From positions 80,266 through 144,265 of the IMG/VR virus record IMGVR_UViG_3300013005_003552: a DNA stretch of 64,000 nucleotides, one strand, 5' to 3'. The DNA comes from a virus. The notes beneath the pieces are model-generated. The model searched no databases, was not told the DNA's origin, and saw only the letters and a program-made list of their open reading frames with translations. Shown here one piece after another: positions 37,736 through 53,776 of this stretch. Numbering within the stretch: position 1 is the stretch's first letter; the number at the start of each line of letters is the position of its first letter. Made by a program: the position numbers and the translations under genes.

Positions 37736-38088
37736 TAACCAGTCTTACAGGCACCGCTGGAGTGACAATATACGGAGGATTAAGTCCTCCGTATATTAAC
37801 ATGACACAGCCCAGCGCAGGTATGGTGCGCTACAATGGTTCCAGTCAGCTCATGGAGGTGTACGATGGTACTGTTTGGTTACAGATGGGAAGTCATCCTA
37901 CCATACAACTGGATGCCCGTGTGCAAGAAATATTGTACTGGGCAGAAAAGAAAATGCGTGAGGATCAAGAACTAGAAAAGCGCATGGAGCAGCATCCGGG
38001 TCTTAGAGATGCCTATGAAAAATTCAAGGTAATGGATGTTCTCACACAAGAGAATGATAATAAAAAAGGAATCTATACCCGTGCTTGA
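37732..38088 (+). CDS. Hypothetical protein
   Basis: GMVRYN..MEVYDG.VW; ATGA coupling. Confidence 0.7.
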   Translation: MITSLTGTAGVTIYGGLSPPYINMTQPSAGMVRYNGSSQLMEVYDGTVWLQMGSHPTIQLDARVQEILYWAEKKMREDQELEKRMEQHPGLRDAYEKFKVMDVLTQENDNKKGIYTRA

Positions 38089-39673
38089 ACAAGACAATCT
38101 AACTGCCAAGCAAAGCGACTATGCTGTGTTCTTGCCGGCTATTTCAGGATTCTATGCAACCTTTATAGGAAAACAGCGTGTTAACAATGACTATGTTGAT
38201 CCTGCTCGTATGCCTGCGGGCATGCAGGACATGGAACAGATGAACTGGTTGAACAGCCAAAAAAGTTTGTTTCCTTATCGGTGGAGTCTTTATTCAGGCG
38301 GTCACGCTAATCTCAATCTTGACAAGGATGATGCCAGCGAAGACATGGTTCGCAAGCGTGAGCCAGGTACATTCATGCTTGGTGACTCTGGTGGATTCCA
38401 GATTGCCAAAGGCCTATGGGAAGGTGACTGGAAGGCCAATTCGGGTTGTGCCAAAGCACAAAAGAAGCGAGACGCAATTCTCAAATGGCTCGACGGTATC
38501 GCTGACTATGGCATGATCCTAGATATTCCAACCTGGGTCATTCACGACAAGAAGGCCAGTGCAGCCTGTCAGATTACCACGCTGGAAGAAGCAGTAGACG
38601 CTACCAAGTTCAATAATGATTATTTCATGCAGCACAGAAAAGGCAAACGCAATGGTGGTGCCAAGTTCTTGAATGTGCTACAAGGTGACAATCATGCCAG
38701 TGCCGAAGAATGGTACCAGATCATGAAACACTACTGTGATCCTGTTCAGTATCCCGACACGCATTTTGACGGGTGGGCCATGGGCGGACAGAACATGTGT
38801 GATGTGCATCTTGTGCTCAGACGCTTGGTGGCTTTGCGACATGACAATTTACTACAAGAAGGTGTGCATGACTGGATGCATTTCTTGGGTACCAGTAAAC
38901 TTGAATGGGCACTGTTACTCACTGACATACAAAGAGCAATTAGAAAATATGTTAACCCTGCTTTTACCATTAGTTTTGATTGTGCAAGCCCGTTTCTTGC
39001 CACTGCCAACGGGCAGATGTATCATCAGATAGATTTGCCGCATAATGACAAATGGTGTTATCGCATGGGGCCCAGCGCAGACGATAAAAAGTATGCTCTG
39101 GACACCAGACCGTTCAAGGATGTGGTTCTAGCAGACAAGGTGTTCAATCACTTTGACGAAAGTCCTATCAGTCAACATCTTCAGATCAAGGATGTGTGCA
39201 TATACAAACCCGGCGATTTGAACAAAATTGGCAAGGAAGGCAAGACCTCATGGGACAGTTTCAGCTATGCACTCATGATGGGTCATAATGTTTGGATGCA
39301 CATTGAAGCTGTGCAGAGAGCCAATCGTGAATATGATTCAGGCACTTGGCCCAACATGCTGTGGAATCAAGGCACCAAAGGTCGTACTGGCGATCATGCA
39401 AAATTTAGAGACATTGTTGATGCTATATTTGCTACCAGTGACAAACAAGAAAGTTTAGACATTATCGAGCACTACAGTAGATATTGGATGGATATCATTG
39501 GCACTCGCGGTTTCAAAGGCGACAAAACCATGAATGCTCATAGTCAATTTAATTCACTGTTTGAATTTGTAGAACCAGAGGCTGAGGAGACCGAACGCGA
39601 TGAGAAAATGGCAGAAGATGCAGCAGAAGATCGACTTGAACAACTTGCAAGAATCGAACGAGGAGGAGACTGA
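38081..39673 (+). CDS. dpdA: TGT-fold 7-deazaguanine DNA transglycosylase (DpdA-like)
   Basis: GDSGGFQI, LDIP, VLQG, GWAMGG, HFLG, SFDCASP in TGT order; clustered with folE/queD/queE. Confidence 0.8.
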   Translation: MLEQDNLTAKQSDYAVFLPAISGFYATFIGKQRVNNDYVDPARMPAGMQDMEQMNWLNSQKSLFPYRWSLYSGGHANLNLDKDDASEDMVRKREPGTFMLGDSGGFQIAKGLWEGDWKANSGCAKAQKKRDAILKWLDGIADYGMILDIPTWVIHDKKASAACQITTLEEAVDATKFNNDYFMQHRKGKRNGGAKFLNVLQGDNHASAEEWYQIMKHYCDPVQYPDTHFDGWAMGGQNMCDVHLVLRRLVALRHDNLLQEGVHDWMHFLGTSKLEWALLLTDIQRAIRKYVNPAFTISFDCASPFLATANGQMYHQIDLPHNDKWCYRMGPSADDKKYALDTRPFKDVVLADKVFNHFDESPISQHLQIKDVCIYKPGDLNKIGKEGKTSWDSFSYALMMGHNVWMHIEAVQRANREYDSGTWPNMLWNQGTKGRTGDHAKFRDIVDAIFATSDKQESLDIIEHYSRYWMDIIGTRGFKGDKTMNAHSQFNSLFEFVEPEAEETERDEKMAEDAAEDRLEQLARIERGGD

Positions 39674-39674
39674 T

Positions 39675-39848
39675 ATGGAAAGCACCAGCAATCGAGTCCG
39701 TCATTTGGAAGAAATGCATAGAGTTTTGGACTTAAAAATAACAGAAATGCAACAGCATCCACATGTGGACGAACAAAAGGTTGCAGAATATAAGAAACAG
39801 AAGTTACAATACAAGGACGAAATTTCTAGACTTAGGTGTCAAGAATAG
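39675..39848 (+). CDS. DUF465/YdcH-like small coiled-coil protein
   Basis: H..LD.KI..KKQKLQYKDEI; GGAGGAG RBS. Confidence 0.7.
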   Translation: MESTSNRVRHLEEMHRVLDLKITEMQQHPHVDEQKVAEYKKQKLQYKDEISRLRCQE

Positions 39849-39882
39849 AAACAACAACACAAACAATTGTCCGAGGACTACA

Positions 39883-40206
39883 ATGATCACTAAAGGTTTT
39901 TACAAGTGGCTGGCCCAAAAAATTTCTTCTGCACAAGAGGACAACCAAGACGAGCTGCGGCATAATCTATCAAAGTTTGGACAAGGCATTCCGGCAGGGC
40001 ATACCAGAGTGTATGATGAGGTGGATGCCACTTTGGATTTGCACTTCCGCATGAGCAAAGCCGAAAACGGTTATGTAATGTCAGTTAGACACACTGATCG
40101 TAAAACTGAAAGATCAAATAATACACTGTATTTGATAGCAGATCATGAAGATCTTGGTCAAAGTATTTCTCATATAATCACTGTTGAAAGTTTGAAAATC
40201 AAATGA
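39883..40206 (+). CDS. Hypothetical protein
   Basis: GAGGA RBS; MITKGFYKWL. Confidence 0.7.
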   Translation: MITKGFYKWLAQKISSAQEDNQDELRHNLSKFGQGIPAGHTRVYDEVDATLDLHFRMSKAENGYVMSVRHTDRKTERSNNTLYLIADHEDLGQSISHIITVESLKIK

Positions 40207-40718
40207 ATCGTCAAGGACATGAAACTGTGAAATTCTTTGTTGGCCAAGAAGTTGAGCACTCGCCTGCTTACGGCATGCGCACACTGTTTGTGATTGGTTT
40301 GCAAAACCCAACTGATATAATTGGATGGGCTCAGCAGTGTGAATGTCAGCACATCTATTTTGGTGCCAATCAAACTTTTCCCAATCCTGGCATCAATGAC
40401 AGTGACACATGGCGACCTTGGGAAAACATGATCAAGGCTGCACTGGACTCTGGTGCATGGTGTACGCTGGATCTTGATGTGAGTGCAGTCGAAGCCTTGC
40501 ACGAAAGTGGCTTGTGCGAATATGCTAGATTCATTCCCATGATCAGTGTTAAACTGCCCTACATTAGTTTGCTCAATTACAATACCACAATTAAACTAGA
40601 TGACCGAGACTTTGAATCAACCAACCCTGGCGTGTGGTGCCATAGTCTACATGATTTGAAAAATCGTGCAGTGTTCACTGACTGGTCTAAATATTCTCAA
40701 GATGAGGTGATAACATGA
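40203..40718 (+). CDS. Hypothetical protein in dpd cluster
   Basis: FFVGQEVEHSPAYG, HIYFGANQTF, TNPGVWCH. Confidence 0.75.
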   Translation: MNRQGHETVKFFVGQEVEHSPAYGMRTLFVIGLQNPTDIIGWAQQCECQHIYFGANQTFPNPGINDSDTWRPWENMIKAALDSGAWCTLDLDVSAVEALHESGLCEYARFIPMISVKLPYISLLNYNTTIKLDDRDFESTNPGVWCHSLHDLKNRAVFTDWSKYSQDEVIT

Positions 40719-40918
40719 AAGAGTTTTTAATAAGAGACGAACCTGCATTTAGATTAAAAGGGCGAATGAGCCAGTGTCTGAGCCCAGAGAATCTTTGGTG
40801 CGTGGAATTCACTGGGCAAAGTCTAAATGACAAAGGTGAAGTGGTTAATAATAGTACCTATCAGTTTTTCCTTGAGGACGCACATATACAAAACATGGTA
40901 AAAGGATTACTGTCATGA
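40715..40918 (+). CDS. Hypothetical protein
   Basis: GAGG RBS, ATGA coupling. Confidence 0.65.
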   Translation: MKEFLIRDEPAFRLKGRMSQCLSPENLWCVEFTGQSLNDKGEVVNNSTYQFFLEDAHIQNMVKGLLS

Positions 40919-41067
40919 CCTGCGAAACCTGTGGCAAAGACTACTCCCCAGCCTGTGACTTTCAGCAAGGTCGCTGTCCGTTGCATCCACCCATGTGGAA
41001 CTTGACACCATATCATTTTCGCTATCTCACACTTGTCAACACTATCAAAGGTTGGTTTCGCTCATGA
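40915..41067 (+). CDS. Small Cys-rich (Zn-binding?) protein (50 aa, not in ORF track)
   Basis: CETC..C..CPLH; ATGA overlaps on both sides. Confidence 0.6.
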   Translation: MTCETCGKDYSPACDFQQGRCPLHPPMWNLTPYHFRYLTLVNTIKGWFRS

Positions 41068-41504
41068 ATACACAAATGGACAGATCACAAACAGACATAA
41101 ACAGTGAAGTTGCAGATCGCATGATATGGGTGCGTTTTGAAAAAGAGGGTATTCATAAATATCCAGCAGCACTGGAGGATCCTAAACTTGCGGATGTATC
41201 TTTTCTTGGCTTTCCTCATCGCCATATTTTTCACTTCCGGGTGTCAATCAGTGTGTTCCATAATGACAGGGACATCGAATTCATCCAGTTCAAACGATGG
41301 CTGGAGAGTCTGTATAGCGATTCCACTCTAGAACTCAATTATAAATCCTGCGAGATGATTGCAGACGACTTATATATCCAAATTAACTTGCGTTACCCCG
41401 GCAGGCATGTTATTATCTCAGTTAGCGAAGACGACGAAAACGGTTGCGAAATTGTTTATCGAGATCCCCGCACCCCAGAAAAAACTTTTTACCATCCAGT
41501 ATAA
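41064..41504 (+). CDS. dpdL: QueD-paralogous T-fold protein, DpdL-like (putative CDG decarboxylase)
   Basis: LGFPHRHIF (LxxxHRHxF in place of QueD CxxxHGH), SCEMIA, VSEDDENG. Confidence 0.7.
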   Translation: MNTQMDRSQTDINSEVADRMIWVRFEKEGIHKYPAALEDPKLADVSFLGFPHRHIFHFRVSISVFHNDRDIEFIQFKRWLESLYSDSTLELNYKSCEMIADDLYIQINLRYPGRHVIISVSEDDENGCEIVYRDPRTPEKTFYHPV

Positions 41505-41518
41505 TAGGAGAAATCAAG

Positions 41519-41827
41519 ATGGCGCACCCAAAGTGGCTTACCAAATACTTTGTTATGAAGTCCGAAGTTAATCAAATCTATGATGACTTAGAAAAATATC
41601 GTGAGTTCTGTGTTTCACACGGTCGTGTGTTCAATGAAGCGGCACTGTACAATGAACGCGACAGAGATTTTTCTGATTTCATGCGTTTCAAAGAACGAGG
41701 ATATAGCAAGAATCATTGGAACTGGGCCAACAAAGATCCTAACGAACAGCGTAAACCCTTCAACAAAGACAACCGAGGCCCTCGTGGTTTTAACAACTAT
41801 CGCTCAGGATACAATCGCAATGCGTAA
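41519..41827 (+). CDS. Hypothetical protein
   Basis: AGGAG RBS; MAHPKWL; Arg/Asn-rich tail. Confidence 0.7.
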   Translation: MAHPKWLTKYFVMKSEVNQIYDDLEKYREFCVSHGRVFNEAALYNERDRDFSDFMRFKERGYSKNHWNWANKDPNEQRKPFNKDNRGPRGFNNYRSGYNRNA

Positions 41828-43010
41828 GTTATACTACATGGGTCTTGAAAGTTACAAAGCTCGGTACACACTACAGCTAACAGAATGGAATCGTCGTGTG
41901 TTCGAACGACGCGGACTTGATGTTAGTTATGTACCAGGACTTACTCTGGACAATGGAGAAAAGATTGTGGTTGGTCAGGTGCTGGATGCACATGGTCGCA
42001 CATACTTTGGCATGAGCCAGCTGATGAATCTAGTTAGACTAATGCAGCAAGGAGAAGTAACCAGTGAAGATGTTATCTACTTTGAAGACATGTTTCAGCC
42101 CGGTATTGAGAGCTTACCTTATATTCTCAATCAAGTGCCTGCTAATCTGCGTCCTCGCATTTTTGTCCGTTGTCTTGCTCAAGCCATTGATCCTGATGAC
42201 TTCGTACATGTATGGGGCATGTCTAAGTGGATGGGCTTGTATGAAAAAATGGTATGCGAACTTGTCCGGGACTCAGGAGGCGCAGTACTAGCCACCAATG
42301 AAGAAATGGTCATGCACATGAAGATTGCAGGATGGGATTGTCCTATCTACAACATTTCAGGCCTGGCCTTTGGCAAGGATGAAGTGCGTGAGCGTGTACC
42401 TGGCGAACTCAAACCATTCCTTGAACGCAGTATGCGTGTGGGCTTTGCAGCTCGCTGGGATCAAGAGAAACAGCCCAACTTTTACATGGACTTGATTGAA
42501 CTCTACCATGAGCGCAATCCCGGCAACACAGTAGAGTTTGCTGTGTTCTCTGGTGCGCCATTGCGTACCAACAATGACAGCTACATGGCTCGTACACGAC
42601 AAATGCAAGCCGAAGGCAAACTGACAATCTATGAAGATCTAGAAAAGAACGACTACTATGCTCTTCTTGCTGACACTCGGGTGTTGTTCAATTGTGCTTT
42701 ACAAGACTGGGTTTCTAACACAGTGAGCGAAGCAGATACTCTTGGTTGCAATGTACTTTATCCTGCTTACCGTAGTTTCCCCGAGTCCTTTGGCAATGAT
42801 CACACTAGATTGTATGTGCCTTGGTCATTGAAAGACGCTTGTAAGAAACTGGAGAAACTTTTGTACCTGGAAAGTTCTCGTATGGGCAAGATCAGTGACT
42901 GGACCAATGGCACTGTAGATCGTATTGTCGACATCATCGAAGGCCAAGGCGAGCAATGGTTGCGCATGAGTACAGACTATCGTAAACACACTCACGAAAG
43001 TAAATTCTAA
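41820..43010 (+). CDS. GT-B fold glycosyltransferase (GT4-like)
   Basis: GFAARWDQEKQP, FNCALQDWVSNTVSEA..GC.VLYP.YRSFPE. Confidence 0.75.
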   Translation: MRKLYYMGLESYKARYTLQLTEWNRRVFERRGLDVSYVPGLTLDNGEKIVVGQVLDAHGRTYFGMSQLMNLVRLMQQGEVTSEDVIYFEDMFQPGIESLPYILNQVPANLRPRIFVRCLAQAIDPDDFVHVWGMSKWMGLYEKMVCELVRDSGGAVLATNEEMVMHMKIAGWDCPIYNISGLAFGKDEVRERVPGELKPFLERSMRVGFAARWDQEKQPNFYMDLIELYHERNPGNTVEFAVFSGAPLRTNNDSYMARTRQMQAEGKLTIYEDLEKNDYYALLADTRVLFNCALQDWVSNTVSEADTLGCNVLYPAYRSFPESFGNDHTRLYVPWSLKDACKKLEKLLYLESSRMGKISDWTNGTVDRIVDIIEGQGEQWLRMSTDYRKHTHESKF

Positions 43011-43012
43011 TT

Positions 43013-43117
43013 ATGATTTATGTCATTGGAATCCTTTTGGTGGTCGCCATGTACTTTTTCATCTGCATGGTAGACAGCGAAACCAAACATCACGACCAGG
43101 ATTCCAATGGACTTTGA
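43013..43117 (+). CDS. Small membrane peptide (34 aa, not in ORF track)
   Basis: MIYVIGILLVVAMYFFICMV; fills the gap. Confidence 0.45.
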   Translation: MIYVIGILLVVAMYFFICMVDSETKHHDQDSNGL

Positions 43118-43346
43118 GCTGTGGCATCAATTGTTAACTGAAACTGTGTATTGGCAAGACATCAACCCTCACAGGTCTCTTGATATTTTGCAACGCACTG
43201 CTGTGGCCTGGGCACATGATCAGAAGTATTTTATGCAATCTGGTCCTGACCGGGTGGATTTGACAAAACTCTACGAACAATATAAACTACTAGAAACTCT
43301 CAAAGGAACTTATCATGGCGAAGAAATCGGATCAGAACACTGCTGA
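43107..43346 (+). CDS. Hypothetical protein
   Basis: 79 aa. Confidence 0.6.
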   Translation: MDFELWHQLLTETVYWQDINPHRSLDILQRTAVAWAHDQKYFMQSGPDRVDLTKLYEQYKLLETLKGTYHGEEIGSEHC

Positions 43347-44391
43347 ACCAGTGAACCCAGAACATGAACATCTAATCGAGGTACTAAAGTTCACTCCGCG
43401 TACTTACAAAATCCAGCTATGGGGTTACGGCGGTGAGTACGCCATGGGCACTGTGGACCGAAACATATATGATTACTTTCGTAGGCGTAGATTGAGCGTG
43501 GCTGATTTTGCCTGGGACAGTGACTATGCTGAAACTCATAACATACCAGAATCCATGTGGCCATTTGTTCCAGGATCTTGGTATGAATGCGAAAACATGG
43601 GACATGTGTACGGAGTAGACCGAGCATCTGGCACCATGCAGATTTTGGATGAAAATGGCGAAGTGGTGTATGAACGCAGCTTGGAAGAACTTGATGGTTG
43701 TGATGTAGAGCTTAACACTCGCGACGAAATTTGGATTGATAGTCAACCCAAAGATACTGTTGTATTTTTTGGTTACACCGCTGACAAAGGAACCTTCTTT
43801 GAAGCTGACATAGAGCTTGGTGCTCCTTTTGATCCAGAAAAACTATGCTTGGTTATTGATGATTTTGATTCAAATGAGATCATCACAGGTGCAGAGTACG
43901 ATGGCGAAGAACTGTGCAACGACGGCGGAGATACCAATGGCAAAGGATCTGATTTTGCATTCTACATTGCAGGCAGTAACAAAGGCCAGGGCTATGAGAG
44001 ATATCGCGACATGGACGATATCAAATACAATCTTACCAATTGGTTTCCTAGCAAAATCAAGCCTGTAGTTGCAGGTATATATGAAGTGGAAGCCAAACAA
44101 GGACATATCTATCATGCTGTGTGGTCTGGCGAGTTCTGGCACAATGAATGGAGTGATACAAAAGAACCATTGAAAATCAAGCAATGGCGAGGCATCGCCT
44201 ATGATCCAGACGAGCAATTTCTTCGTGATGAGTTAGATCAAATATACTTGTCGCTTGTTGTTGAAGACCAAGATGCTGAAGTACTAAATTGCGAACATTG
44301 CGGCTGGAGCGGCAGTGCCAACAACACCAATGACTGGGATGGCCAAATGTGTTGCCCTGACTGTGGCGAACCTGTACAATCTATCAATTGA
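43315..44391 (+). CDS. Acidic hypothetical protein with C-terminal Zn ribbon
   Basis: Asp/Glu-rich; CEHC..CPDC. Confidence 0.7.
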   Translation: MAKKSDQNTAEPVNPEHEHLIEVLKFTPRTYKIQLWGYGGEYAMGTVDRNIYDYFRRRRLSVADFAWDSDYAETHNIPESMWPFVPGSWYECENMGHVYGVDRASGTMQILDENGEVVYERSLEELDGCDVELNTRDEIWIDSQPKDTVVFFGYTADKGTFFEADIELGAPFDPEKLCLVIDDFDSNEIITGAEYDGEELCNDGGDTNGKGSDFAFYIAGSNKGQGYERYRDMDDIKYNLTNWFPSKIKPVVAGIYEVEAKQGHIYHAVWSGEFWHNEWSDTKEPLKIKQWRGIAYDPDEQFLRDELDQIYLSLVVEDQDAEVLNCEHCGWSGSANNTNDWDGQMCCPDCGEPVQSIN

Positions 44392-44401
44392 GAAAAATAA
44401 A

Positions 44402-45382
44402 ATGATCAAAGTATTTGTTACAGGAGCAACTGGCTATATTGGTAGCCATGTATGCAAGAAATTAAAAGAAGATGGCTATGAAGTAATTGGTCTTGACCGT
44501 GTGCGCAGAGAACACACCCTGCAATACATGGATCAATTTATAGAAGCAGACTATCATAGTCAAACCTGCATTGATGCACTGGTGCAGCATGCACCCCAAG
44601 CAGTTATTCATCTAGCAGGTACTAGTCTAGTAGGACCCAGTGTGAGTGATCCTGGCGAATACTATACAAACAATGTGGCCAAGACTGCTGCATTGCTAAA
44701 TGCCATACGGTTTCTAGAACACATGCCAGTGGTAGTTTTTTCTAGCAGTGCCGCGGTGTATGGTGCACCAGAAAAAGACCTGATACACGAAAACGATCCT
44801 TATAGCCCACTGAGTCCATATGGACAAAGCAAGGCCATGATTGAAATCATGCTAACGGATTTTTTCAAGGCCTACGGCATGTGCAGTGCCAGTCTGCGTT
44901 ACTTCAATGCCTGTGGTGCTGACGAGTCTGGAACTCTTGGTCAAGCACCTGGTGCAACACACATTGTGGCTAGATTATTAGAAAGTGCTAGAGATAAAAC
45001 AAAATTTACTCTTTACGGTAATGATTATAATACCGCAGATGGTACTTGTGTGAGAGATTATGTGCATGTGAGTGATCTAGCCTCGGCTCATAGCCTAGCA
45101 GTGTCGTACCTAATGAGCGATATGGATCCTTGCTTTGCTCTAAATCTTGGCACAGGCCAAGGATACAGCAATCAAGAAGTCATTGACACAGTTATCCAAA
45201 CTGTTGGGTCTGTTGACATTTCTGTTGGCCCACGACGAGCCGGAGATCCTGATCAACTGGTAGCAGGAAATGTGTTAGCCAAAGCAAAACTAGGTTGGCA
45301 TCCAGAAAACTCTAATTTGTCCAATATTGTAACTTCTGCATGGAAGTGGTATAATAACCCATCAAATCAAGTTGACAACTGA
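44402..45382 (+). CDS. galE: UDP-glucose 4-epimerase
   Basis: TGATGYIGSH, FSSSAAVYG, YGQSK, LRYFNACG, DGTCVRDYVHV. Confidence 0.92.
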   Translation: MIKVFVTGATGYIGSHVCKKLKEDGYEVIGLDRVRREHTLQYMDQFIEADYHSQTCIDALVQHAPQAVIHLAGTSLVGPSVSDPGEYYTNNVAKTAALLNAIRFLEHMPVVVFSSSAAVYGAPEKDLIHENDPYSPLSPYGQSKAMIEIMLTDFFKAYGMCSASLRYFNACGADESGTLGQAPGATHIVARLLESARDKTKFTLYGNDYNTADGTCVRDYVHVSDLASAHSLAVSYLMSDMDPCFALNLGTGQGYSNQEVIDTVIQTVGSVDISVGPRRAGDPDQLVAGNVLAKAKLGWHPENSNLSNIVTSAWKWYNNPSNQVDN

Positions 45383-45400
45383 TCTAAATAAGTTTACAAT
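45372..45400 (+). promoter_or_regulatory. sigma70 promoter with nested TAAATA
   Basis: TTGACA-ACTGATCTAAATAAGTT-TACAAT. Confidence 0.75.
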
Positions 45401-45407
45401 ACACAAC

Positions 45408-45434
45408 TAGCCATCCTCGGCTATAACTCGGAGA
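45408..45434 (+). promoter_or_regulatory. folE leader hairpin / mini-pseudoknot over the RBS
   Basis: TAGCC-ATCCTC-GGCTA-TAACTC-GGAGA; loop TCC complementary to SD GGA. Confidence 0.45.
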
Positions 45435-45438
45435 GCAA

Positions 45439-46206
45439 ATGGTTTACAACAAAGCATACATTAGCAATGACGAAGAAACCGCACTAGACGCCATGGCAGG
45501 CGATGGCGGTTATGCCCTGGGGCAAGCACACAAACAGATTGCAGCAAAAATGCGCCGTGAAGGCAAGCGATTCTGGGCAGGCGATAACATCAGCGACTAT
45601 GTTGACGATAAGGCCAAAGAACAACTGATTGACGAAGCGCGAGCTGCATTTGAACTTGTGCTAGACACACTGCTAATTGATCGACACAATGATCCTAACA
45701 GCCACGGCACAGCACAACGCTTGGCCAAGATGTATTACAACGAAATAATGGCAGGACGATATGAATCAGCACCAGACGCAACAGCATTCCCAAACAACAC
45801 CACAGACCGATACGAAGGTATGCTGGTTGTGCGTTCTGAGTTACGCAGTATGTGTAGTCATCACCATCAGCCTGTCAGTGGCGTTGCTTATATTGGAATT
45901 ATCGCTGCCGAAAAACTAATTGGTCTGTCTAAGTATACTCGTATTGCTCAGTGGTGTGCTCGTCGTGGCACTCTCCAGGAGGAACTGGCCAATGACATTG
46001 CTAGGGAGATCAGCCGAGCCACCGGAAGCAAAAATGTAGGTGTTTACATACAGGCCACGCATGATTGCTGTGAGAATCGCGGCATCATGGCACACAGTTC
46101 ATTGACCCAGACCACTGTGCTGACAGGTGCATTCAAAGACGATCACAGTGTGAAGAAAGAGTTCATGGACAATATTAAACTACAGCAAGAATTTGCTCCG
46201 AGGTAA
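45439..46206 (+). CDS. folE: GTP cyclohydrolase I
   Basis: SMCSHHHQP, IGLSK..R, R..LQE, HDCCENRG. Confidence 0.95.
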   Translation: MVYNKAYISNDEETALDAMAGDGGYALGQAHKQIAAKMRREGKRFWAGDNISDYVDDKAKEQLIDEARAAFELVLDTLLIDRHNDPNSHGTAQRLAKMYYNEIMAGRYESAPDATAFPNNTTDRYEGMLVVRSELRSMCSHHHQPVSGVAYIGIIAAEKLIGLSKYTRIAQWCARRGTLQEELANDIAREISRATGSKNVGVYIQATHDCCENRGIMAHSSLTQTTVLTGAFKDDHSVKKEFMDNIKLQQEFAPR

Positions 46207-46209
46207 AAA

Positions 46210-46816: not shown

Positions 46817-46818
46817 TC

Positions 46819-47358
46819 ATGAGTGCAGTACGAGAAAAAGATTCTGCAGATTTTGATCTAGAAGCGTTTGTTGACTTGTTTGACGAAGCACTGACCAGTG
46901 ATGATCCCAGTGTTCAAAAAACTCTACAGCATCTCATGGTTATCTGTGCGCTAGCTCGTAATCATGCTAGACACGATTCTCGTAACGGCCCATTGCGAAG
47001 ACTGTTTGAAGATATAAAACATCTTAATTCAAGATTAAACAATCTAGAGAGTCAACGTGGCATGCATCATCCTGGCTACGGTCCTGTTCCGCCAACTAAC
47101 CCAACTATCTGGCCACCTGTTGTTACTCAGCCAGGAACAGCTAGCCCAAATTGGCCAGGCCCAAATCAAATCTGGTGCGGCACTGACACCACCGCTGTCT
47201 GGTGCGGCACTGACACCACCGCTGTCAGCGTGAGTTTGCCTGAGAACAGTGCAGTTGCTCAAAGTGTAAGTGCAACTATTGCAGAGCGAGTGGATGATCT
47301 GTTAAAATCAAACTACAAAGGCTCCAGTGTTGGGACTGTAAATGTTAAAATTGCTTGA
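46819..47358 (+). CDS. Hypothetical protein with low-complexity tail
   Basis: MSAVREK..; contains a 27-bp duplication. Confidence 0.7.
   Translation: MSAVREKDSADFDLEAFVDLFDEALTSDDPSVQKTLQHLMVICALARNHARHDSRNGPLRRLFEDIKHLNSRLNNLESQRGMHHPGYGPVPPTNPTIWPPVVTQPGTASPNWPGPNQIWCGTDTTAVWCGTDTTAVSVSLPENSAVAQSVSATIAERVDDLLKSNYKGSSVGTVNVKIA
47171..47226 (+). repeat. Perfect 27-bp in-frame tandem duplication
   Basis: TCTGGTGCGGCACTGACACCACCGCTG x2 (WCGTDTTAV x2). Confidence 0.95.
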
Positions 47359-47812
47359 ACGACTAGGTAGAAAACGCATTATCAACGATAGGCTCAACGA
47401 TGAGCCATATCTTGAACGCTATTATCTTTTTCTTAAAGAAAGAAAGAAATTTCCGTTCAATGTATTTTTACACAAGTTCTTAAAAGGAGACCCAGACGAT
47501 GTACATGATCACCCATGGCCGTATTGCACTTTCATACTTGCGGGAGGTTACTACGAGTGGATTCCGGAGTTTAATGACTCAGGTACCAAGGTCAGTGAAA
47601 CACGGCATTGGCGTGGGCCTGGCCATTTCCGCTTTTGCAGGGCTGGTAGCTTTCATCGTATTGAACTTAAAGATGGTGTAACTGCATGGACTTTATTCAT
47701 GCCAGGACCTCATCAACGAGAATGGGGATTTTTAATAGGACAAGATCCAAACAAAGATTGGGAACACAATGAAAGTTATCTCACCCGGCGTGGTGGCACT
47801 AAAGCCGTTTAA
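47342..47812 (+). CDS. Cupin-like hypothetical protein
   Basis: LH..D..HDHPW..GGYYE..FHRI..WTLF..REWGF. Confidence 0.75.
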   Translation: MLKLLERLGRKRIINDRLNDEPYLERYYLFLKERKKFPFNVFLHKFLKGDPDDVHDHPWPYCTFILAGGYYEWIPEFNDSGTKVSETRHWRGPGHFRFCRAGSFHRIELKDGVTAWTLFMPGPHQREWGFLIGQDPNKDWEHNESYLTRRGGTKAV

Positions 47813-48104
47813 GATTCATACCACTGCTCTCACACAAGAAATGGTAGACTGGTGGGTCATGGTCGGCGCGGAAGCTCAAGAAATCACTGACGACCATTGG
47901 GCCAAAGCTGGCCGTATGATAGCTAAACACTATCGCATACGCATGGGCCAGGGCGACTGGAGTCACAAGTTCAACGATGGCAGTAACAACTATCTTATTC
48001 ATTTGCGTGAAGAGTTTGCCCCCGAAGCCAGCTTGTTCATGTTAAAATTTCACGAGACAATTATCAATCACGACTGTAAGGTACCAGACTATGACTTCTC
48101 CTAA
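47769..48104 (+). CDS. Hypothetical protein (start uncertain)
   Basis: Fills the gap before the PRTase. Confidence 0.6.
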   Translation: MKVISPGVVALKPFKIHTTALTQEMVDWWVMVGAEAQEITDDHWAKAGRMIAKHYRIRMGQGDWSHKFNDGSNNYLIHLREEFAPEASLFMLKFHETIINHDCKVPDYDFS

Positions 48105-48660
48105 CAAAATTGTAACTATTGATCAAACACAGTTGAACGGATACATTCACAGTATCATGCGTCAAATGGCTGCTGACAATTGGCGTCCAGACTATATTGT
48201 GGGTATCACTCGAGGAGGTCTTGTGCCTGCTGTGATGATCAGCCAATATCTAGACATTCCCATGCACACCTTAAACATCAGCTTTCGCGATGCAGAGCTA
48301 GGGCCTGAAAGCAATCTCTGGATGGCAGAGGATGCATTTGGGTATGTGCCCACAGATGTTGCGCCTAGACCAGCAAACATGACTGTGTCTGATCCTGCAC
48401 TGCGCAAGAAGATTCTTATTGTAGACGATATCAATGACACTGGTCGCACACTACGCTGGATCAAAGAAGACTGGGAATCAGGTTGTTTGCCTAGAGATGA
48501 AACCTGGAACGATATCTGGCATCACAATGTACAATTTGCCACTGTGGTGGACAACGACTCAAGTGAATTTAAGGGTGTTGACTACGCTGGACTAATTATT
48601 AACAAACATGAAGACCCTTGCTGGATTGAATTCCCTTGGGAGAATTGGTGGGCAAAATGA
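48091..48660 (+). CDS. Type I purine phosphoribosyltransferase (Gpt-like)
   Basis: VGITRGGLVPA, ILIVDDINDTGRT, WIEFPWE. Confidence 0.88.
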   Translation: MTSPNKIVTIDQTQLNGYIHSIMRQMAADNWRPDYIVGITRGGLVPAVMISQYLDIPMHTLNISFRDAELGPESNLWMAEDAFGYVPTDVAPRPANMTVSDPALRKKILIVDDINDTGRTLRWIKEDWESGCLPRDETWNDIWHHNVQFATVVDNDSSEFKGVDYAGLIINKHEDPCWIEFPWENWWAK

Positions 48661-49148
48661 TTAATGGCAAAAAAGTAGGATTTACCGCAAGCACATTTGA
48701 TTTACTACATGCAGGGCATGTGGCCATGTTGCGCGAAGCAAAAGAACACTGTGAATATCTTATCTGTGCTTTACAAAATGATCCTACACTGGATCGTCCT
48801 AGTAAAAATAAACCTGTTCAAAGCATAGTTGAAAGACAGCTACAATTGGCAGCATGCAAGTATGTTGATGAAGTTTGGGTATATAACACAGAAAAAGACC
48901 TAGAAGATCTTTTACTAATTCTTCCCATAAATGTGAGAATCTTGGGAGTCGAGTACGAAGGCAAAGAATTCACCGGCAGAGAAATTTGCCACAAGCGCGG
49001 AATTGAATTGTTCTTTAACGGCCGTGATCACAGTTTTAGTTCTAGCGAACTGCGTCAACGAGTGGCTAATGCAGAAGAATTTAAGAAAAAGTTGCAAGCA
49101 TTTGAACCAGTAGGATCAGATGACACTGGAGGCCCTAGTGAGAAATAA
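48657..49148 (+). CDS. Cytidylyltransferase (TagD/RfaE-like)
   Basis: TFDLLHAGH, KP..ER..ACKYVD, SSSELR. Confidence 0.88.
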   Translation: MINGKKVGFTASTFDLLHAGHVAMLREAKEHCEYLICALQNDPTLDRPSKNKPVQSIVERQLQLAACKYVDEVWVYNTEKDLEDLLLILPINVRILGVEYEGKEFTGREICHKRGIELFFNGRDHSFSSSELRQRVANAEEFKKKLQAFEPVGSDDTGGPSEK

Positions 49149-49156
49149 ATACAAGC

Positions 49157-49333
49157 ATGTGGACTCTAGTGATAATGCTACACGCTGTTTCGCCCAATGT
49201 GCCCCCGTCCAAAGGGTCAATAACCTTTATGACTCAAAATTTTGAAGAATGTCAAAAAGTAAGAGACACACTAACAAGATCATGGGCGTCAGACCGTTAT
49301 CGCGTTACTGCAAACTGCATTTTTATCAAATAA
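49157..49333 (+). CDS. Small hypothetical protein (58 aa, not in ORF track)
   Basis: ATG 5 nt after TAAATA; MWTLVIML, two Cys. Confidence 0.55.
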   Translation: MWTLVIMLHAVSPNVPPSKGSITFMTQNFEECQKVRDTLTRSWASDRYRVTANCIFIK

Positions 49334-49341
49334 ATCAACCC

Positions 49342-49406
49342 AGCGGTCTTTGGCATCACTCCCGCTATACAAACTCTGCTGCCTATGCTATAATCTAACA
49401 TAGGAG
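49342..49406 (+). ncRNA. Candidate preQ1-I-like riboswitch / structured leader of queD
   Basis: P1 AGCGG/CCGCT, loop with GGCA, tail ATACAAAC, TGCC partner, SD-occluding CCTATG/CATAGG. Confidence 0.4.
49366..49394 (+). promoter_or_regulatory. Extended -10 sigma70 promoter for queD
   Basis: TATACA-17bp-TATAAT with TGn extension. Confidence 0.55.
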
Positions 49407-49413
49407 AAAACAC

Positions 49414-49959
49414 ATGGCAAGAAATTTTTCAACAAAAACTTACGGTAACGATCGCGGCTATTCCTGCTGCTTCAGACAGTGGAAGGCCACTCATAGTCAT
49501 TGCAGTTTGATGCATGGCTATAGTTTAGGTTTCCGTTTTGTGTTTGAAGCCGAGCAACTAGACGAACGCAATTGGGTGCAAGACTTTGGTGGCTTAAAAG
49601 AAATCAAGGCCTGGTTGGACACACAGTTTGATCATACCACGGTGATCGCAGAAGATGATCCTCTACTGGATCGTTTCAAACAAATGGCAGGTTGGAGTCG
49701 CATGGCCGAAGTTGACGGCAAACCAGATGAAGTTCAGAAAAGTCCATACCATAATCAAGGTGTAATTGATTTGCGTATTGTGCCTGCTGTGGGATGCGAA
49801 GCATTTGCAGAATTTGTTTACAAACATGTTGCACAATGGCTAGCCGCTGACCCAACCAACAAGTATCAAAATTTGCTAGGCGACGAACATCAGCGAGTAA
49901 AATTGGTGAGTGCTGAAGTGTTTGAACATTCAGGTAACAGTGCTATCTACGAAGGATAA
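49414..49959 (+). CDS. queD: 6-carboxy-5,6,7,8-tetrahydropterin synthase
   Basis: HCSLMHGY, WVQDFGGLK, FDH, GCE.FAE, VFEH. Confidence 0.88.
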   Translation: MARNFSTKTYGNDRGYSCCFRQWKATHSHCSLMHGYSLGFRFVFEAEQLDERNWVQDFGGLKEIKAWLDTQFDHTTVIAEDDPLLDRFKQMAGWSRMAEVDGKPDEVQKSPYHNQGVIDLRIVPAVGCEAFAEFVYKHVAQWLAADPTNKYQNLLGDEHQRVKLVSAEVFEHSGNSAIYEG

Positions 49960-49961
49960 CT

Positions 49962-50414
49962 ATGACAATTCACGACGAACGCATCTTTACAAATATCGCT
50001 TATGAACGCAGTGAAGCTGGTCCAGCTGCGCCCTGGGATGATACAGTAAGACAAGACTTTCATGTAGCAGTGTTTAACGATCGTTATCCATGCACACCAG
50101 GTCATTTGTTATTTGTACCACAACAGAATAGCAAGCATGTGTTACGAGATGCGTTTGTTGATGCATTTGATCATGGAAAACAAAAAGTAGATACAGGAGA
50201 ATGGGATGGTTTCAACATCGGACTTAATTATGGCGAAGCTGCGGGACAAACTGTGCCATGGCCTCATATCCATCTTATACCCCGTAGAAAAGGCGATGTA
50301 CCGGACCCGGTGGGCGGCGTACGAAATACGATTCCGGGCAAGGGCAACTATCGAAAGACACCAGCGCCAATCCGCACCCTAACCGGCGACAGTGAAGGCG
50401 GAGACATAGATTAA
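49962..50414 (+). CDS. HIT-family nucleotide hydrolase
   Basis: YPCTPGHLLFVP, GFNIG.N.GEAAGQTV, HIHLIPR. Confidence 0.9.
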   Translation: MTIHDERIFTNIAYERSEAGPAAPWDDTVRQDFHVAVFNDRYPCTPGHLLFVPQQNSKHVLRDAFVDAFDHGKQKVDTGEWDGFNIGLNYGEAAGQTVPWPHIHLIPRRKGDVPDPVGGVRNTIPGKGNYRKTPAPIRTLTGDSEGGDID

Positions 50415-51283
50415 TGATAATTGTAACAGGTGATCGCGGATTTATAGGCAGCGAACTAAAGAAACAACTTGTGAATAATGGTCACAATGTTCATAGTCTT
50501 GACTGGGCTGATCGTGGCAAAACTTGGGATACTGGTGGCGATTCAATTGAATGGATCTTTCACATGGGCGCTATTAGTGAAACCAATGTGTTTGATTGGA
50601 ATGCCTTGGTTAGAAAAAACATAGAAGACACACAGGCATGGATTCGTTTTGCCAACGAACACGGCTGCGGCATTACCTATGCCTCAAGTGCTAGTGTGTA
50701 CGGCCCGTGGAGCAACAGCCCCGAATGGGGGCCTTTTCAGCCTCAGCACCACTACGGCGTGAGCAAGATAACCATTGACATGTGGTGCGCTGAGCAACAG
50801 TTCAAGGTGCCGGTACAAGGCATGAGATTTTTTAATGTGTACGGTCGCAACGAAGGTCACAAAAACCAACCTAGTCCTATTCGTAGATACATTGAGAGTG
50901 CTATAACCAGTCGTAAACTAACTGTCTGGCATCATGAAGGACGATTAGGATCTAGAGATTTTATCAGTGTGGATGACTGTATCAATGGTATGCTAGCCTT
51001 AAAAAACACAGGTACTAGTGGAGTGTATAATATTGGCACCGGCAAGCAGTTGACCTTTGAAGACATTGCCAGACTAATACAAAAACATGTGGGCATGGAC
51101 AATGCGCAGATCCATATCACACCCATGCCAGACGAGATGGTGCCAAAATATCAGTGGGAAAGTTGCGCTAACCTAAATAAACTATTGACAGTGATCCCAG
51201 ACTGGAATCCAGATACGGTTGAGCAATGGCTCGACAAAAACTTTGAAACTCTATACAATAAAATTCGTGAGGAAATTCTATGA
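50414..51283 (+). CDS. NAD-dependent sugar epimerase (HldD/RfaD-like)
   Basis: IIVTGDRGFIGS, FHMGAIS, YASSASVYG, YGVSK, RFFNVYG.NEGHK. Confidence 0.85.
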   Translation: MIIVTGDRGFIGSELKKQLVNNGHNVHSLDWADRGKTWDTGGDSIEWIFHMGAISETNVFDWNALVRKNIEDTQAWIRFANEHGCGITYASSASVYGPWSNSPEWGPFQPQHHYGVSKITIDMWCAEQQFKVPVQGMRFFNVYGRNEGHKNQPSPIRRYIESAITSRKLTVWHHEGRLGSRDFISVDDCINGMLALKNTGTSGVYNIGTGKQLTFEDIARLIQKHVGMDNAQIHITPMPDEMVPKYQWESCANLNKLLTVIPDWNPDTVEQWLDKNFETLYNKIREEIL

Positions 51284-52173
51284 AACTAAAAGTTAGTGAA
51301 ATCTTTTATAGCACACAAGGCGAGGGTAGATATGTTGGTGTACCCAGCGTGTTTCTGCGTACATTTGGATGTAATTTTACCTGTGGCGGATTTGGAATGC
51401 CCAGAGGTGAAGTGAGTGTAGAACGAGATTCTGTAGACTCAGACAAATACAAGTCATTTGCAGATTTGCCACTGGTACACACCGGCTGCGACAGCTATGC
51501 CAGCTGGGATCCGCGTTTCAAAGATTTTAGTCCCACCAAGGATATTGATACACTGGTGAATGAACTACTGGTTCTTACTCCAAACGGTCGTTGGCAACAG
51601 TACACCGGTAATCCTGTGCATCTTGTGATCACGGGCGGCGAGCCATTGCTGGGCTGGCAACGAGTGTATCCAGAACTACTGGAACATTCGCGCATGCTGG
51701 ATCTTGATTACATAACTTTTGAAACCAATGGTACTCAGCCGTTGAGTCCTGATTTTCAAAATTATATTGAAAAGTGGCACACCACCTGGCGTGGTACTAA
51801 CGAGTCAGATCACGATCAGTTTGTTGGTCGCTGGCGTGAAATGCAATTCAGTGTAAGCCCAAAACTCAGTGCCAGTGGCGAAAAATGGGAAGACGCTATC
51901 AGGCCAGAAGTAGTGCTGGAATATCAACAGTTTGGTTACACATATCTAAAATTTGTAGTTGCAAGCAAGGAAGACTTTGACGAAGTACAAAAAGCAGTTG
52001 GCGAATATCGTCGGGCAGGATTCATGGGGCAAGTTTATGTTATGCCTGTTGGAGGAACAACTGAGTTGTACGAGAAAAACAAATTATTTGTTGCCGAAGA
52101 AGCACTGAAACTAGGGTATATTTACAGTCCAAGACTTCATGTGGATCTTTGGGGCAACGGTTGGGGCAAATAA
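51280..52173 (+). CDS. queE: 7-carboxy-7-deazaguanine synthase (radical SAM)
   Basis: EIFYSTQGEG..FLR.FGC, TGGEPL, ETNG, SPKL, PRLH. Confidence 0.92.
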   Translation: MKLKVSEIFYSTQGEGRYVGVPSVFLRTFGCNFTCGGFGMPRGEVSVERDSVDSDKYKSFADLPLVHTGCDSYASWDPRFKDFSPTKDIDTLVNELLVLTPNGRWQQYTGNPVHLVITGGEPLLGWQRVYPELLEHSRMLDLDYITFETNGTQPLSPDFQNYIEKWHTTWRGTNESDHDQFVGRWREMQFSVSPKLSASGEKWEDAIRPEVVLEYQQFGYTYLKFVVASKEDFDEVQKAVGEYRRAGFMGQVYVMPVGGTTELYEKNKLFVAEEALKLGYIYSPRLHVDLWGNGWGK

Positions 52174-52598
52174 TGGTCACAAAAAAAACGCCTGTAAAAA
52201 CACCAGCAACTGCAAAAAAGAAACCAGCTCGAGTAAAAAAACCTGCAGGTGGTGCTGCTGCAACGGCAAAGCCAAAACTTCGTGTTAGCGCCAATGCAAA
52301 AGAGGCAGCTACCAGACGAGGCGAACCTTATGTTAGTGTTGTCAGTGTTGAACTAGATCAAGACAATGTTGGTAATGGTGCTTTTGAACTAGACTGGAAT
52401 GACATATTTGTTGCCAAGTTGATTCGTGCTGGCTACGAAGGCAAAGATGATGCCCAAATTGTTGATCGTTGGTTTCAAACCATTTGCCGTAACGTGATCA
52501 TGGAAAACTATGAGCAATGGGAAGTAAATCAACCAAAAGAAGATAGACTGACTCTGCAACGACGAGATCTAGGCAACGGCAGAACTGAAGTTAGCTAG
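52173..52598 (+). CDS. Hypothetical protein with Lys/Ala-rich N-terminus
   Basis: FELDWND; TAATG coupling. Confidence 0.75.
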   Translation: MVTKKTPVKTPATAKKKPARVKKPAGGAAATAKPKLRVSANAKEAATRRGEPYVSVVSVELDQDNVGNGAFELDWNDIFVAKLIRAGYEGKDDAQIVDRWFQTICRNVIMENYEQWEVNQPKEDRLTLQRRDLGNGRTEVS

Positions 52599-52606
52599 GC
52601 TATTTT

Positions 52607-53776
52607 ATGACCCATATATGTAGCGCAAAAATTTTTAACATTTCCAAAAAAGTAAAAGATTCCTACTTTGTTTTTCTCACAAGAGATCTCGAGTGGGTTG
52701 AGAGAAACACACCAGATCAAAAAACGCCTTTTGTGCCCACTGGCGCATGGGGAGAGCCATGGCTAGAATATGATCCTGTGTTCATGCAACGATTGGCACG
52801 GTTTATTAAATCCTATCCCAACGATTATGTTAACTCTCAAGGAACCATGTGGTATGAAATCAGCAATGCCCATGAATTTTTCTTAGAGTGGCTGCGTTCA
52901 GGCCAACTTGAAAAGGCGCATGAGCATCTCAATCTCATGCATCAAAGTCCGTTGTTGATTGGCATCAGCCAAGGCGATGTTGAAACTTACTATCTTCAAA
53001 CCTACCCAGACGCAAGTTATATAAGGTTACTGCGACACTATGATGTGTTGCTGGGAGTTATGGAATACTTAGGTATCATTGGTCCGCAAAATCACGAACA
53101 AGGAACTTCATTTGTAGCAGTATCTGCTGATACTCTGCTAGATAACTCTCCCAAGGTTATTGTTGCACCCAAATGGCAGGGTGGATTATGGGGCATTCAA
53201 ACTTCCCGTGGTCTGTTCAGTGATCGAGATCTCATGGCCTTGTATATCGCCTTAAAAGTAAAAAGCAAATATCCCATAGAATCTCGCATCGTGGAAATAG
53301 GCGGAGGAGCTGGTCAGGTGGCCTACTGGTTGTATCAGCTGGGGTATAGAAATATTTTCATGGTGGATTTGCCAGGCGTGGCTGCATGTCAAGCCTATCA
53401 GTTGGCAGCCAACATCGGCGCAGAGAATGTGAGTTTTGCATACGAAAACCTTGACACCGCTGTTAAATTCCTAACACCATCTCAACTCAAGCATCGTGTG
53501 GATAGATTCAATTTGGTAATCAATTCAGACAGCATGCCCGAAATGGACAAAGAATCCTTAAATGGCTATTTGGAATTTATTGCCAACAATTCGGATTCTT
53601 TTTTCAGCATCAATCAAGAAGCCAGATCCACATCTTTTAACATGAATCCGCAACATGTTGTACACCGTGTAATCAAAAAAGAATTTGCAGATAAATTTAC
53701 CCGAATTGATCGCAGTAAATTTTGGTTACGGGACGGGTACACTGAAGAATGGTATTTCACCAATAAAACGGGCTAG
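52607..53776 (+). CDS. Putative sugar O-methyltransferase
   Basis: IVEIGGGAG, VDLP, INSDSMPEM, FFSINQE. Confidence 0.7.
   Translation: MTHICSAKIFNISKKVKDSYFVFLTRDLEWVERNTPDQKTPFVPTGAWGEPWLEYDPVFMQRLARFIKSYPNDYVNSQGTMWYEISNAHEFFLEWLRSGQLEKAHEHLNLMHQSPLLIGISQGDVETYYLQTYPDASYIRLLRHYDVLLGVMEYLGIIGPQNHEQGTSFVAVSADTLLDNSPKVIVAPKWQGGLWGIQTSRGLFSDRDLMALYIALKVKSKYPIESRIVEIGGGAGQVAYWLYQLGYRNIFMVDLPGVAACQAYQLAANIGAENVSFAYENLDTAVKFLTPSQLKHRVDRFNLVINSDSMPEMDKESLNGYLEFIANNSDSFFSINQEARSTSFNMNPQHVVHRVIKKEFADKFTRIDRSKFWLRDGYTEEWYFTNKTG

Follow-up and report, generated by a model that had tools for sequence, protein, structure and literature searches.

Does a phage attach a sugar to a purine of its own DNA? 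The question is raised by the final 64 kb of a 144-kb viral contig in IMG/VR (record IMGVR_UViG_3300013005_003552, positions 80,266 to 144,265), which we refer to as the window. At a rated completeness of approximately 39%, the contig covers only part of a jumbo phage genome; the source is a PA5oct-like jumbo phage. All substantial open reading frames (ORFs) within positions 38036-53776 of the window are on the + strand and form a single co-directional block, which is placed inside the replication genes of the phage. The original prediction, made from the letters of the window, held that this block interleaves a 7-deazaguanine pathway with glycosylation genes, and that the phage may make a sugar-decorated, possibly O-methylated, 7-deazaguanine. 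FolE, QueD, and QueE convert GTP to 7-carboxy-7-deazaguanine (CDG). The scheme of deazaguanine DNA modification is already known, and what is new here is a dedicated glycosyltransferase (GT) within it. The best explanation of the whole, to which we would give an even chance, is a DpdL module lacking QueC in which the GT adds a hexose to the deazaguanine. The genes that carry this argument are as follows.

38036..39673, + strand: DpdA-like protein, putative DNA-guanine transglycosylase of 545 aa with a large, divergent tRNA-guanine transglycosylase (TGT) fold (AlphaFold2 [AF2] model and motifs)
41064..41504, + strand: DpdL, a QueD-like T-fold protein and proposed CDG decarboxylase (LGFPHRHIF; phrog_17812)
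41820..43010, + strand: predicted GT-B (GT4-like) glycosyltransferase (AF2 model and Pfam matches of relatives)
44402..45382, + strand: UDP-hexose 4-epimerase GalE (TIGR01179, 326.4 bits versus a cut-off of 262.3)
45439..46206, + strand: GTP cyclohydrolase I FolE (PF01227, E 1.3e-39)
49414..49959, + strand: QueD, 6-carboxytetrahydropterin synthase (PF01242, E 6e-15; CSLMHGY fits CxxxHG)
51280..52173, + strand: QueE-like radical S-adenosylmethionine (SAM) enzyme, CDG synthase (N-terminal QueE signature)

All twelve genes named in the original prediction proved to be real co-directional ORFs at, or a few codons off, the coordinates it gave. Curated models confirmed its labels for GalE, FolE, and QueD and, elsewhere in the block, for a phosphoribosyltransferase (PRTase), a cytidylyltransferase-like protein, a HIT protein, and a short-chain dehydrogenase/reductase (SDR). 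The remaining core labels were borne out by other means: the DpdA-like TGT by its AF2 fold and invariant aspartates, DpdL by its motif, the GT-B enzyme by its model fold and the Pfam matches of its relatives, and QueE by clustering.

The LGFPHRHIF of DpdL fits the LxxxHRHxF signature that stands in place of the CxxxHGH of QueD (PMC10516641), and H52, R53, H54, and F56 were invariant in 30 homologues. Identity of the window DpdL was 34% to that of phiST (CGPG_00067), 57% to ACP17, 60% to PA5oct gp166, and 61.5% to RHph_I1_18; distant members gave weak PTPS matches. The QueE-like protein matched five QueE models, over its first 35 residues only, and clustered with the QueE of phiST, ACP17, and PA5oct (gp162). 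Its cysteine spacing is atypical, with C31-x3-C35 and the next cysteine at position 70, compared to the compact CX3CX2C radical-SAM motif. The original prediction had seen no QueC in the window; we likewise found none in the 144-kb contig or in two relatives rated 100% and 92% complete. DpdL therefore occurs with FolE, QueD, QueE, and DpdA and without QueC. It is well supported that the block is a QueC-less, DpdL-type 7-deazaguanine DNA-modification pathway, and we regard deazaguanine modification of the phage DNA as likely.

Three cultured phages allow this block to be compared with known systems. Cui, Hutinet et al. (NAR 2023, PMC10516641) reported that the DNA of Cellulophaga phage phiST carries plain dDG, the DNA form of 7-deazaguanine (DG). 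Like the window, phiST has FolE, QueD, QueE, a DpdL with LxxxHRHxF, and a TGT-superfamily enzyme, has no QueC, and carries these genes beside replication genes (PMC10516641). In contrast, its DpdA3 is 259 aa long compared to 545 aa for the window enzyme, with no detectable sequence similarity, and it does not share the GT (absent from the whole phiST genome) or the GalE, PRTase, nucleotidyltransferase (NT), HIT, SDR, and methyltransferase genes of the window. PA5oct (Pseudomonas, Wroclawvirus) is syntenic with the window across the polymerase, gp170, the DpdA-like gp168, the GT gp167, and the DpdL gp166, followed by a short or truncated epimerase (gp164), PRTase (gp163), QueE (gp162), and an exonuclease. 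It differs in that its PTPS (QueD-like) gene, gp230, is reported elsewhere in the genome and in that its cluster lacks the HIT and O-methyltransferase genes. PA5oct DNA resists enzymes at G-containing restriction sites, and the authors concluded that it contains a modified G of unknown structure (PMC12191111); our literature search found no published structure for this base. In ACP17 (Acidovorax, T4-like), gp119-gp126 comprise, in this order, QueD, FolE, gp122, DpdA3 (gp123), a GT (gp124), DpdL (gp125), and QueE. Its gp122 is homologous to the protein at 40203-40718 of the window and gp124 has a TM of 0.74-0.85 to the window GT model, whereas the phage backbone and the DpdA subfamily are different and the cluster has no GalE or PRTase. 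ACP17 was named as a phage with DpdA and DpdL in the earlier study, in which its GT was not discussed (PMC10516641).

The DpdA-like protein had no match in Pfam (including TGT, PF01702), PHROG, or NCBIfam. Comparison with PDB sequences by phmmer and by family profile returned nothing relevant, and the fold was therefore taken from a predicted structure. The AF2 model was built on 33 homologues (49-93% identity) and reached a pLDDT of 80. The top 50 Foldseek matches to this model in the PDB were all Zymomonas mobilis tRNA-guanine transglycosylase (E ~1e-6, prob 1.0, TMt ~0.5). Because these matches were only tRNA-guanine transglycosylases, the model indicates that the window protein is a TGT-fold enzyme. 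D117 (in GDSGGFQ), D163, and D315 (in SFDCASP, the FDC motif) were invariant in the 33 homologues, and we take the DSGG and FDC aspartates, by motif mapping, to be Asp102 and Asp280 of TGT. The true start of the gene is probably near 38081. The protein was 34.5% identical to PA5oct gp168, and it looks like a member of a separate subfamily, outside the named DpdA1-4 subfamilies, common to PA5oct gp168, Sinorhizobium phage Phosso, and one Vibrio phage; BLAST against the DpdA3 of ACP17 gave an E value of only 0.004, a remote relation. Fold, catalytic residues, context, and the G-modified DNA of PA5oct together suggest that this enzyme would exchange guanine in DNA.

The AF2 model of the GT had a pLDDT of 95 and a pTM of 0.92. 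Foldseek returned at least 500 PDB matches at E<=0.001, and all chains among the matches listed were GT-B glycosyltransferases. The nearest solved structures were the retaining GT4 enzymes MshA, BshA, PimA, and LmbT and a tetrahydrobiopterin glucosyltransferase (5ze7). Relatives of the GT formed at least 763 clusters at 50% identity in a search of 1.8 billion representative proteins, and 42 of 60 diverse relatives matched Glycos_transf_1 (PF00534), with a best E value of 4.5e-10. R212, E216, and K217 were invariant columns, and D296 and E304, with x7 spacing, were at least 90% conserved. The R/K pair and D296-x7-E304, mapped by position only, are consistent with the diphosphate-binding and EX7E elements of GT4. 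With MshA and BshA, its best PDB matches (E 4e-12 to 1e-10), the window GT shares the GT-B fold, and (D/E)x7E and R/K columns are conserved in its family; however, identity to them is only 10-12%, and the GT profile barely detects solved GTs (best E 4e-4). The model thus indicates a genuine GT-B enzyme of a distinct GT4-like family, whose acceptor is presumably a deazapurine or DNA.

The original prediction had proposed looking for this GT family alongside dpdA and dpdL in other phages, and the association held throughout. Clade counts were taken from DpdA-anchored IMG/VR loci with at least 5 kb downstream (n = 36) and from GT-anchored loci (n = 67). DpdL, GT, and GalE were all present in 36 of 36 of the former, and DpdA and DpdL were both present in 67 of 67 of the latter. 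More than 596 IMG/VR contigs were matched by each query. Outside the clade, a GT profile found members beside DpdL or DpdA in six unrelated cultured phage lineages: Synechococcus BUCT-ZZ01 (E 1e-144), Xanthomonas X1 (2e-55), Burkholderia BCSR5 (3e-53), Phosso (6e-32), ACP17 gp124 (2e-29), and PA5oct gp167 (5e-29). Five distant metagenomic members (29-33% identity), picked regardless of context and with markedly different phage backbones, all had PTPS/QueD genes and a DpdL-like gene adjoining, and the four on long-enough contigs also had radical-SAM and GTP cyclohydrolase genes adjoining. GT and DpdL were adjacent in both gene orders.

Likewise, a scan of prokaryotes with one genome per species (approximately 185,000 species) yielded 7 GT matches, all on contigs of metagenome-assembled genomes (MAGs) or bins. 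The 6 full-length matches had DpdL and FolE beside the GT, and 4 had the whole module of polymerase, DpdA, DpdL, and GT; the seventh match was partial, with nothing else detectable nearby. With the exception of that partial match, whose context was undetectable, every GT-family member examined sits in a DpdL-type deazaguanine cluster. Since the family was found only beside DpdL, FolE, QueD, and QueE genes in many unrelated phages, it is well supported that the GT belongs to the deazaguanine pathway and is not there by chance.

The reverse does not hold. A profile search showed the GT to be absent genome-wide from four DpdL phages, phiST, RHph_I1_18, Ahp1, and Bakedbeans. The DpdL of RHph_I1_18 is among the closest to that of the window, and the GT-less lineages are not one clade; the DpdL tree is poorly resolved and cannot date gain or loss of the GT. 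Pfam searches on the DpdL neighbors in the GT-less phages found no alternative tailoring enzyme. Because GT-less DpdL phages exist, phiST with plain dDG among them, the GT is best read as an optional tailoring addition that acts downstream.

Two further observations concern these relatives. In Vibrio phage Bakedbeans a 383-aa ORF (locus positions 9212-10363) ends in the DpdL domain, and its N-terminal approximately 250 residues had no Pfam match. The closest MAG copies of the module (GT 69-72% identical) are on phage contigs binned in Haliscomenobacter and Chitinophagales MAGs, a weak hint of a Bacteroidota host or else a binning artefact.

A sugar donor could come from within the block, as GalE follows the GT in 36 of 36 and 34 of 34 clade loci. 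The other genes of the block are listed below.

40203..40718, + strand: conserved 171-aa protein between dpdA and dpdL (no family match)
43315..44391, + strand: acidic 358-aa protein (pI 4.3) between the GT and GalE (no family match except a weak phrog_26541)
47342..47812, + strand: cupin-like protein, possible oxygenase (phrog_4786 'cysteine dioxygenase', E 3.5e-34; HDHPW...FHRIE motif)
48091..48660, + strand: type I purine-type PRTase (PF00156, E 4e-13; best NCBIfam model xanthine/guanine PRT)
48657..49148, + strand: nucleotidyltransferase, HldE-domain-II/TagD-like (PF01467; HAGH motif)
49962..50414, + strand: HIT-superfamily protein (PF01230, E 1e-8; PHIHLIP motif, two His only)
50414..51283, + strand: SDR sugar-nucleotide epimerase/dehydratase, HldD-like (PF01370; YGVSK catalytic motif)
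52607..53776, + strand: candidate SAM-dependent (sugar O-) methyltransferase of 389 aa (TIGR04371 borderline; VEIGGGAG motif)

The PRTase, NT, HIT, HldD-like SDR, cupin, and O-methyltransferase genes are variable accessories across the clade. The PRTase family was also found in the clusters of PA5oct (gp163) and BUCT-ZZ01, and the cupin-like gene is limited to part of the clade. Three of them, the O-methyltransferase, HIT, and HldD-like genes, count as accessories in a small sub-clade, outside the core. For the 389-aa protein, TIGR04371 ('putative sugar O-methyltransferase', NanM-type) was the best model, and clusters automatically named 'sugar O-methyltransferase' were reached with an atlas feature score of 0.98. 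The 171-aa protein was present in 27 of 27 long DpdA-anchored loci, and its sole outside homologue was ACP17 gp122 (E 1e-20). The 358-aa protein, present in a minority of relatives, has a zinc-ribbon-like C-terminal CxxC...CxxC. Atlas and NCBIfam searches on the 171-, 358-, 184-, and 111-aa ORFs returned nothing usable.

Other lineages carry other sugar genes. In X1 (locus 5843-7455) and BCSR5 (locus 11090-13105), three genes precede the GT and encode an ATP-pyrophosphatase of PAPS-reductase/CysD type, a PIG-L-like deacetylase of the MshB/BshB family (a weak match, E 4.7e-5), and a small unknown protein. The pairing of GT and deacetylase resembles that of MshA with MshB, and the trio hints at a de-N-acetylated hexosamine, perhaps with adenylation on the CDG carboxyl. 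BUCT-ZZ01, a T4-like cyanophage isolated on S. elongatus PCC 7942, has two GT paralogues flanking DpdA3 and DpdL (locus positions 11010-12353 and 14001-15167), one of them 61% identical to the window GT, and its cluster also holds an annotated xanthine-guanine PRTase. Two sugars are possibly carried by this phage. Sugar genes that recur yet vary by lineage (GalE, the PIG-L-like deacetylase, a second GT) argue for real glycosylation with lineage-specific sugars.

Taken together, these genes suggest the following pathway. FolE, QueD, and QueE would take GTP to CDG, DpdL would decarboxylate CDG to DG, and the DpdA-like TGT enzyme would swap guanine in DNA for the deazaguanine. The dedicated, retaining-type GT4-like GT, paired with DpdL and with its donor supplied via the phage GalE, would add a hexose to the deazaguanine, most likely galactose or glucose or their N-acetyl forms, either while the base is still free or once it is in the DNA. 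The product would be a purine made bulky by its sugar, which would stop restriction enzymes and possibly also modification-dependent nucleases. In the sub-clade of the window, the NT, HIT, HldD-like SDR, and O-methyltransferase-like proteins would probably make or tailor an unusual NDP-sugar. The PRTase, in the simplest reading, would recycle guanine released by DpdA to GMP/GTP for FolE; we favor such salvage because the gene is patchily distributed. We infer all of the sugar steps and the PRTase role, and decoration of the deazaguanine by the GT from gene association. A sugar on deazaguanine in phage DNA is plausible, the prediction from genes standing evenly balanced. A little short of that we place the more specific proposal of a sugar on genomic 7-deazaguanine in which the DpdL-GT pair maybe forms an unusual linkage (at C7, C8, or the CDG carboxyl) and the sugars are lineage-specific. 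These may be galactose or glucose here, perhaps tailored and O-methylated, a de-N-acetylated hexosamine in X1 and BCSR5, and two sugars in BUCT-ZZ01. Of the original prediction, a QueC-less DpdL-type deazaguanine pathway and the membership of the GT in it stood; the gene behind the possible O-methylation is an accessory, found in 1 of 34 relatives. The label of putative sugar O-methyltransferase is borderline: it is that of the best model, at a score just under the cut-off.

Several points weigh against this pathway. DG has neither a hydroxyl nor a side-chain amine, so it offers no obvious acceptor atom for a sugar, and we know of no retaining GT4 enzymes that form C-glycosides. The window copy of the GT had no Pfam match of its own, and its nearest structural neighbors all act on small molecules, not DNA. 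The GT family is acidic (median pI 5.7); because the DpdA-like enzyme is also acidic, pI was uninformative and was dropped as a clue to DNA versus a small molecule. Complex prediction for the GT and DpdL scored 0.00, which speaks neither for nor against binding. Scores of the sugar genes were also below model cut-offs: 71.7 bits for the NT against TIGR02199 (HldE domain II; cut-off 181.5), 178.3 bits for the SDR against TIGR02197 (HldD; cut-off 274.6), and 43.5 bits for the 389-aa protein against TIGR04371 (cut-off 44). No SIS/GmhA gene was found in the contig or the complete relatives. An ADP-heptose pathway was not supported, since the HldE and HldD scores are under the equivalog cut-offs and GmhA is missing; HldE and HldD are no more than the models that the two proteins resemble most. 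Finally, decarboxylation of CDG by DpdL is a proposal from the literature that lacks experimental demonstration even in phiST, and no dDG was formed in E. coli by dpdL with dpdA from either phiST or ACP17 (PMC10516641).

Some of these points would be explained if the DNA held plain dDG or dCDG, as in phiST, with the GT acting on a transient intermediate from which the sugar is later removed. The sugar might then be on a glycosylated pterin or on a CDG or DG carrier, or might aid DpdL or DpdA. The same core genes yield dDG in phiST (PMC10516641), no acceptor is obvious on DG, and the closest structures to the GT use small molecules, including the pterin of 5ze7. The authors of the failed reconstitution with dpdL and dpdA suggested that further enzymes might be needed (PMC10516641), and the tight adjacency of GT and DpdL, in either gene order, would fit such an aid. 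On the other hand, phiST replaces all G without a GT, so that the GT is not needed for the core reaction, and no sugar-removing glycosidase was recognized in the cluster. The variable GalE, deacetylase, second GT, and O-methyltransferase genes also fit final decoration under diversifying selection better. We consider a transient sugar unlikely.

Alternatively, the modification could be made prior to replication. The PRTase would make a DG or CDG ribonucleotide that is reduced, phosphorylated, and incorporated by the polymerase; any sugar would follow at the DNA level, and the role of the TGT-like enzyme would be secondary or in repair. A PRTase is present in the clusters of the window clade, PA5oct, and BUCT-ZZ01, the tubercidin route phosphoribosylates CDG ahead of decarboxylation (bioRxiv 10.64898/2026.04.15.718813), and phiST-type systems attain 100% replacement (PMC10516641). 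However, the PRTase was found in only approximately 14 of 34 clade loci and is missing from ACP17, X1, BCSR5, and phiST, while DpdA is universal in such clusters. Family scans saw no dGTP-clearing enzyme in the block, and guanine salvage accounts for the PRTase equally well. Such a route is improbable.

Slightly less probable again is that the cluster makes a free glycosylated 7-deazapurine comparable to huimycin, dapiramicin, or tubercidin, a metabolite or a nucleoside or nucleotide analogue directed at the host or competitors, with the PRTase and GT acting on free base. HuiG glycosylates preQ0-derived bases at N2, with an O-methyltransferase in the same system, and is a precedent for a sugar on a 7-deazaguanine-type base; the tubercidin PRTase phosphoribosylates CDG (bioRxiv 10.64898/2026.04.15.718813). 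Three phage lineages have a purine-type PRTase, and the PDB neighbors of the GT take small-molecule acceptors. In contrast to these phages, the huimycin and dapiramicin systems, which we liken by description only, are for actinomycete secondary metabolites derived from preQ0, and such clusters are without nucleic-acid insertion enzymes (bioRxiv 10.64898/2026.04.15.718813). Here a TGT-fold base-exchange enzyme is always co-encoded, the module is among replication genes, and the DNA of PA5oct is itself G-modified (PMC12191111).

The T4 alpha- and beta-glucosyltransferases resemble our proposal in being phage enzymes of GT-B type that place a sugar on a modified base for anti-restriction, but they belong to unrelated families, act on a pyrimidine (5-hydroxymethylcytosine, hmC), and need dCMP hydroxymethylase; a ThyA-family search gave no evidence of dCMP/dUMP hydroxymethylase in the contig or in the complete relatives. 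That the GT, GalE, and sugar genes are unrelated to guanine and joined to it by synteny only, serving T-even-like hydroxymethylpyrimidine, protein, or lipopolysaccharide glycosylation, is very improbable even though GT-B enzymes do glycosylate hmC in T-even and other phages and a cyanophage 'DNA alpha-GT' was among the generic structural matches (rank 29), because the complete relatives have as their only ThyA-family gene a bona fide thymidylate synthase (equivalog, 353.3 bits versus 327), the contig has no ThyA-family gene that we could find, the DNA alpha-GT match was no better than those of other GT4 enzymes (TM ~0.5), and the GT tracks DpdL across unrelated backbones (jumbo, T4-like, and PolA-UDG phages) in both gene orders.

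Other features of the locus were examined as well. The 16-kb block matched no phage record by megablast. The DpdA-like protein formed approximately 8,000 clusters at 90% identity, and a large protein search with it as query returned close relatives only (73-100% identity), without added diversity. Promoter and terminator counts in the block were no higher than in shuffled controls. The best two sigma-70-like matches (11 of 12 positions), both intergenic, were at 45372-45400, directly upstream of folE, and at 53783-53812, upstream of a 5'-3' exonuclease gene; a 10 of 12 match with an extended TG was at 49366-49394, upstream of queD. The original prediction had seen riboswitch-like leaders upstream of queD and folE. 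An Rfam scan of 37-55 kb gave zero family matches at E<=1, so these leaders are no recognizable preQ1 riboswitches. The 242-aa protein at 37007-37735, which had been read as a clamp, had no family match, and that label was not confirmed. Its counterparts in PA5oct (gp170, seen by mass spectrometry) and in Phosso carry annotations as virion structural proteins. Between the 242-aa protein and the DNA polymerase is a 330-aa ORF (35958-36950) with a weak class I methyltransferase match under the cut-off (Methyltransf_23, E 5e-5); proteins of relatives at the same position were only 20-27% identical.

Our literature search on DpdA, deazaguanine, glycosyltransferases, and glycosylation of phage DNA turned up no account of DNA with a glycosylated deazaguanine. 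The eight phage deazaguanines published to date are all free of sugar, we found no report of a purine bearing one, and the 2023 DpdL paper makes no mention of glycosylation (PMC10516641). GT-bearing phages are in culture on tractable hosts, namely Pseudomonas PA5oct, Acidovorax ACP17, Xanthomonas X1, Burkholderia BCSR5, Synechococcus BUCT-ZZ01, and Sinorhizobium Phosso, which makes the prediction directly testable by mass spectrometry. Both 7-deazaguanine DNA modification and sugar-decorated pyrimidines are known anti-restriction devices. If the prediction is true, a glycosylated purine would be described in DNA for the first time, and the GT family would provide new enzymes for purine-directed DNA glycosylation. 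Such a base could also explain the G-modified DNA of PA5oct, sensing by END-type nucleases, and the failure of dpdL and dpdA to reconstitute dDG. The GT and DpdA-like families that predict such a sugar-bearing purine are very widespread.

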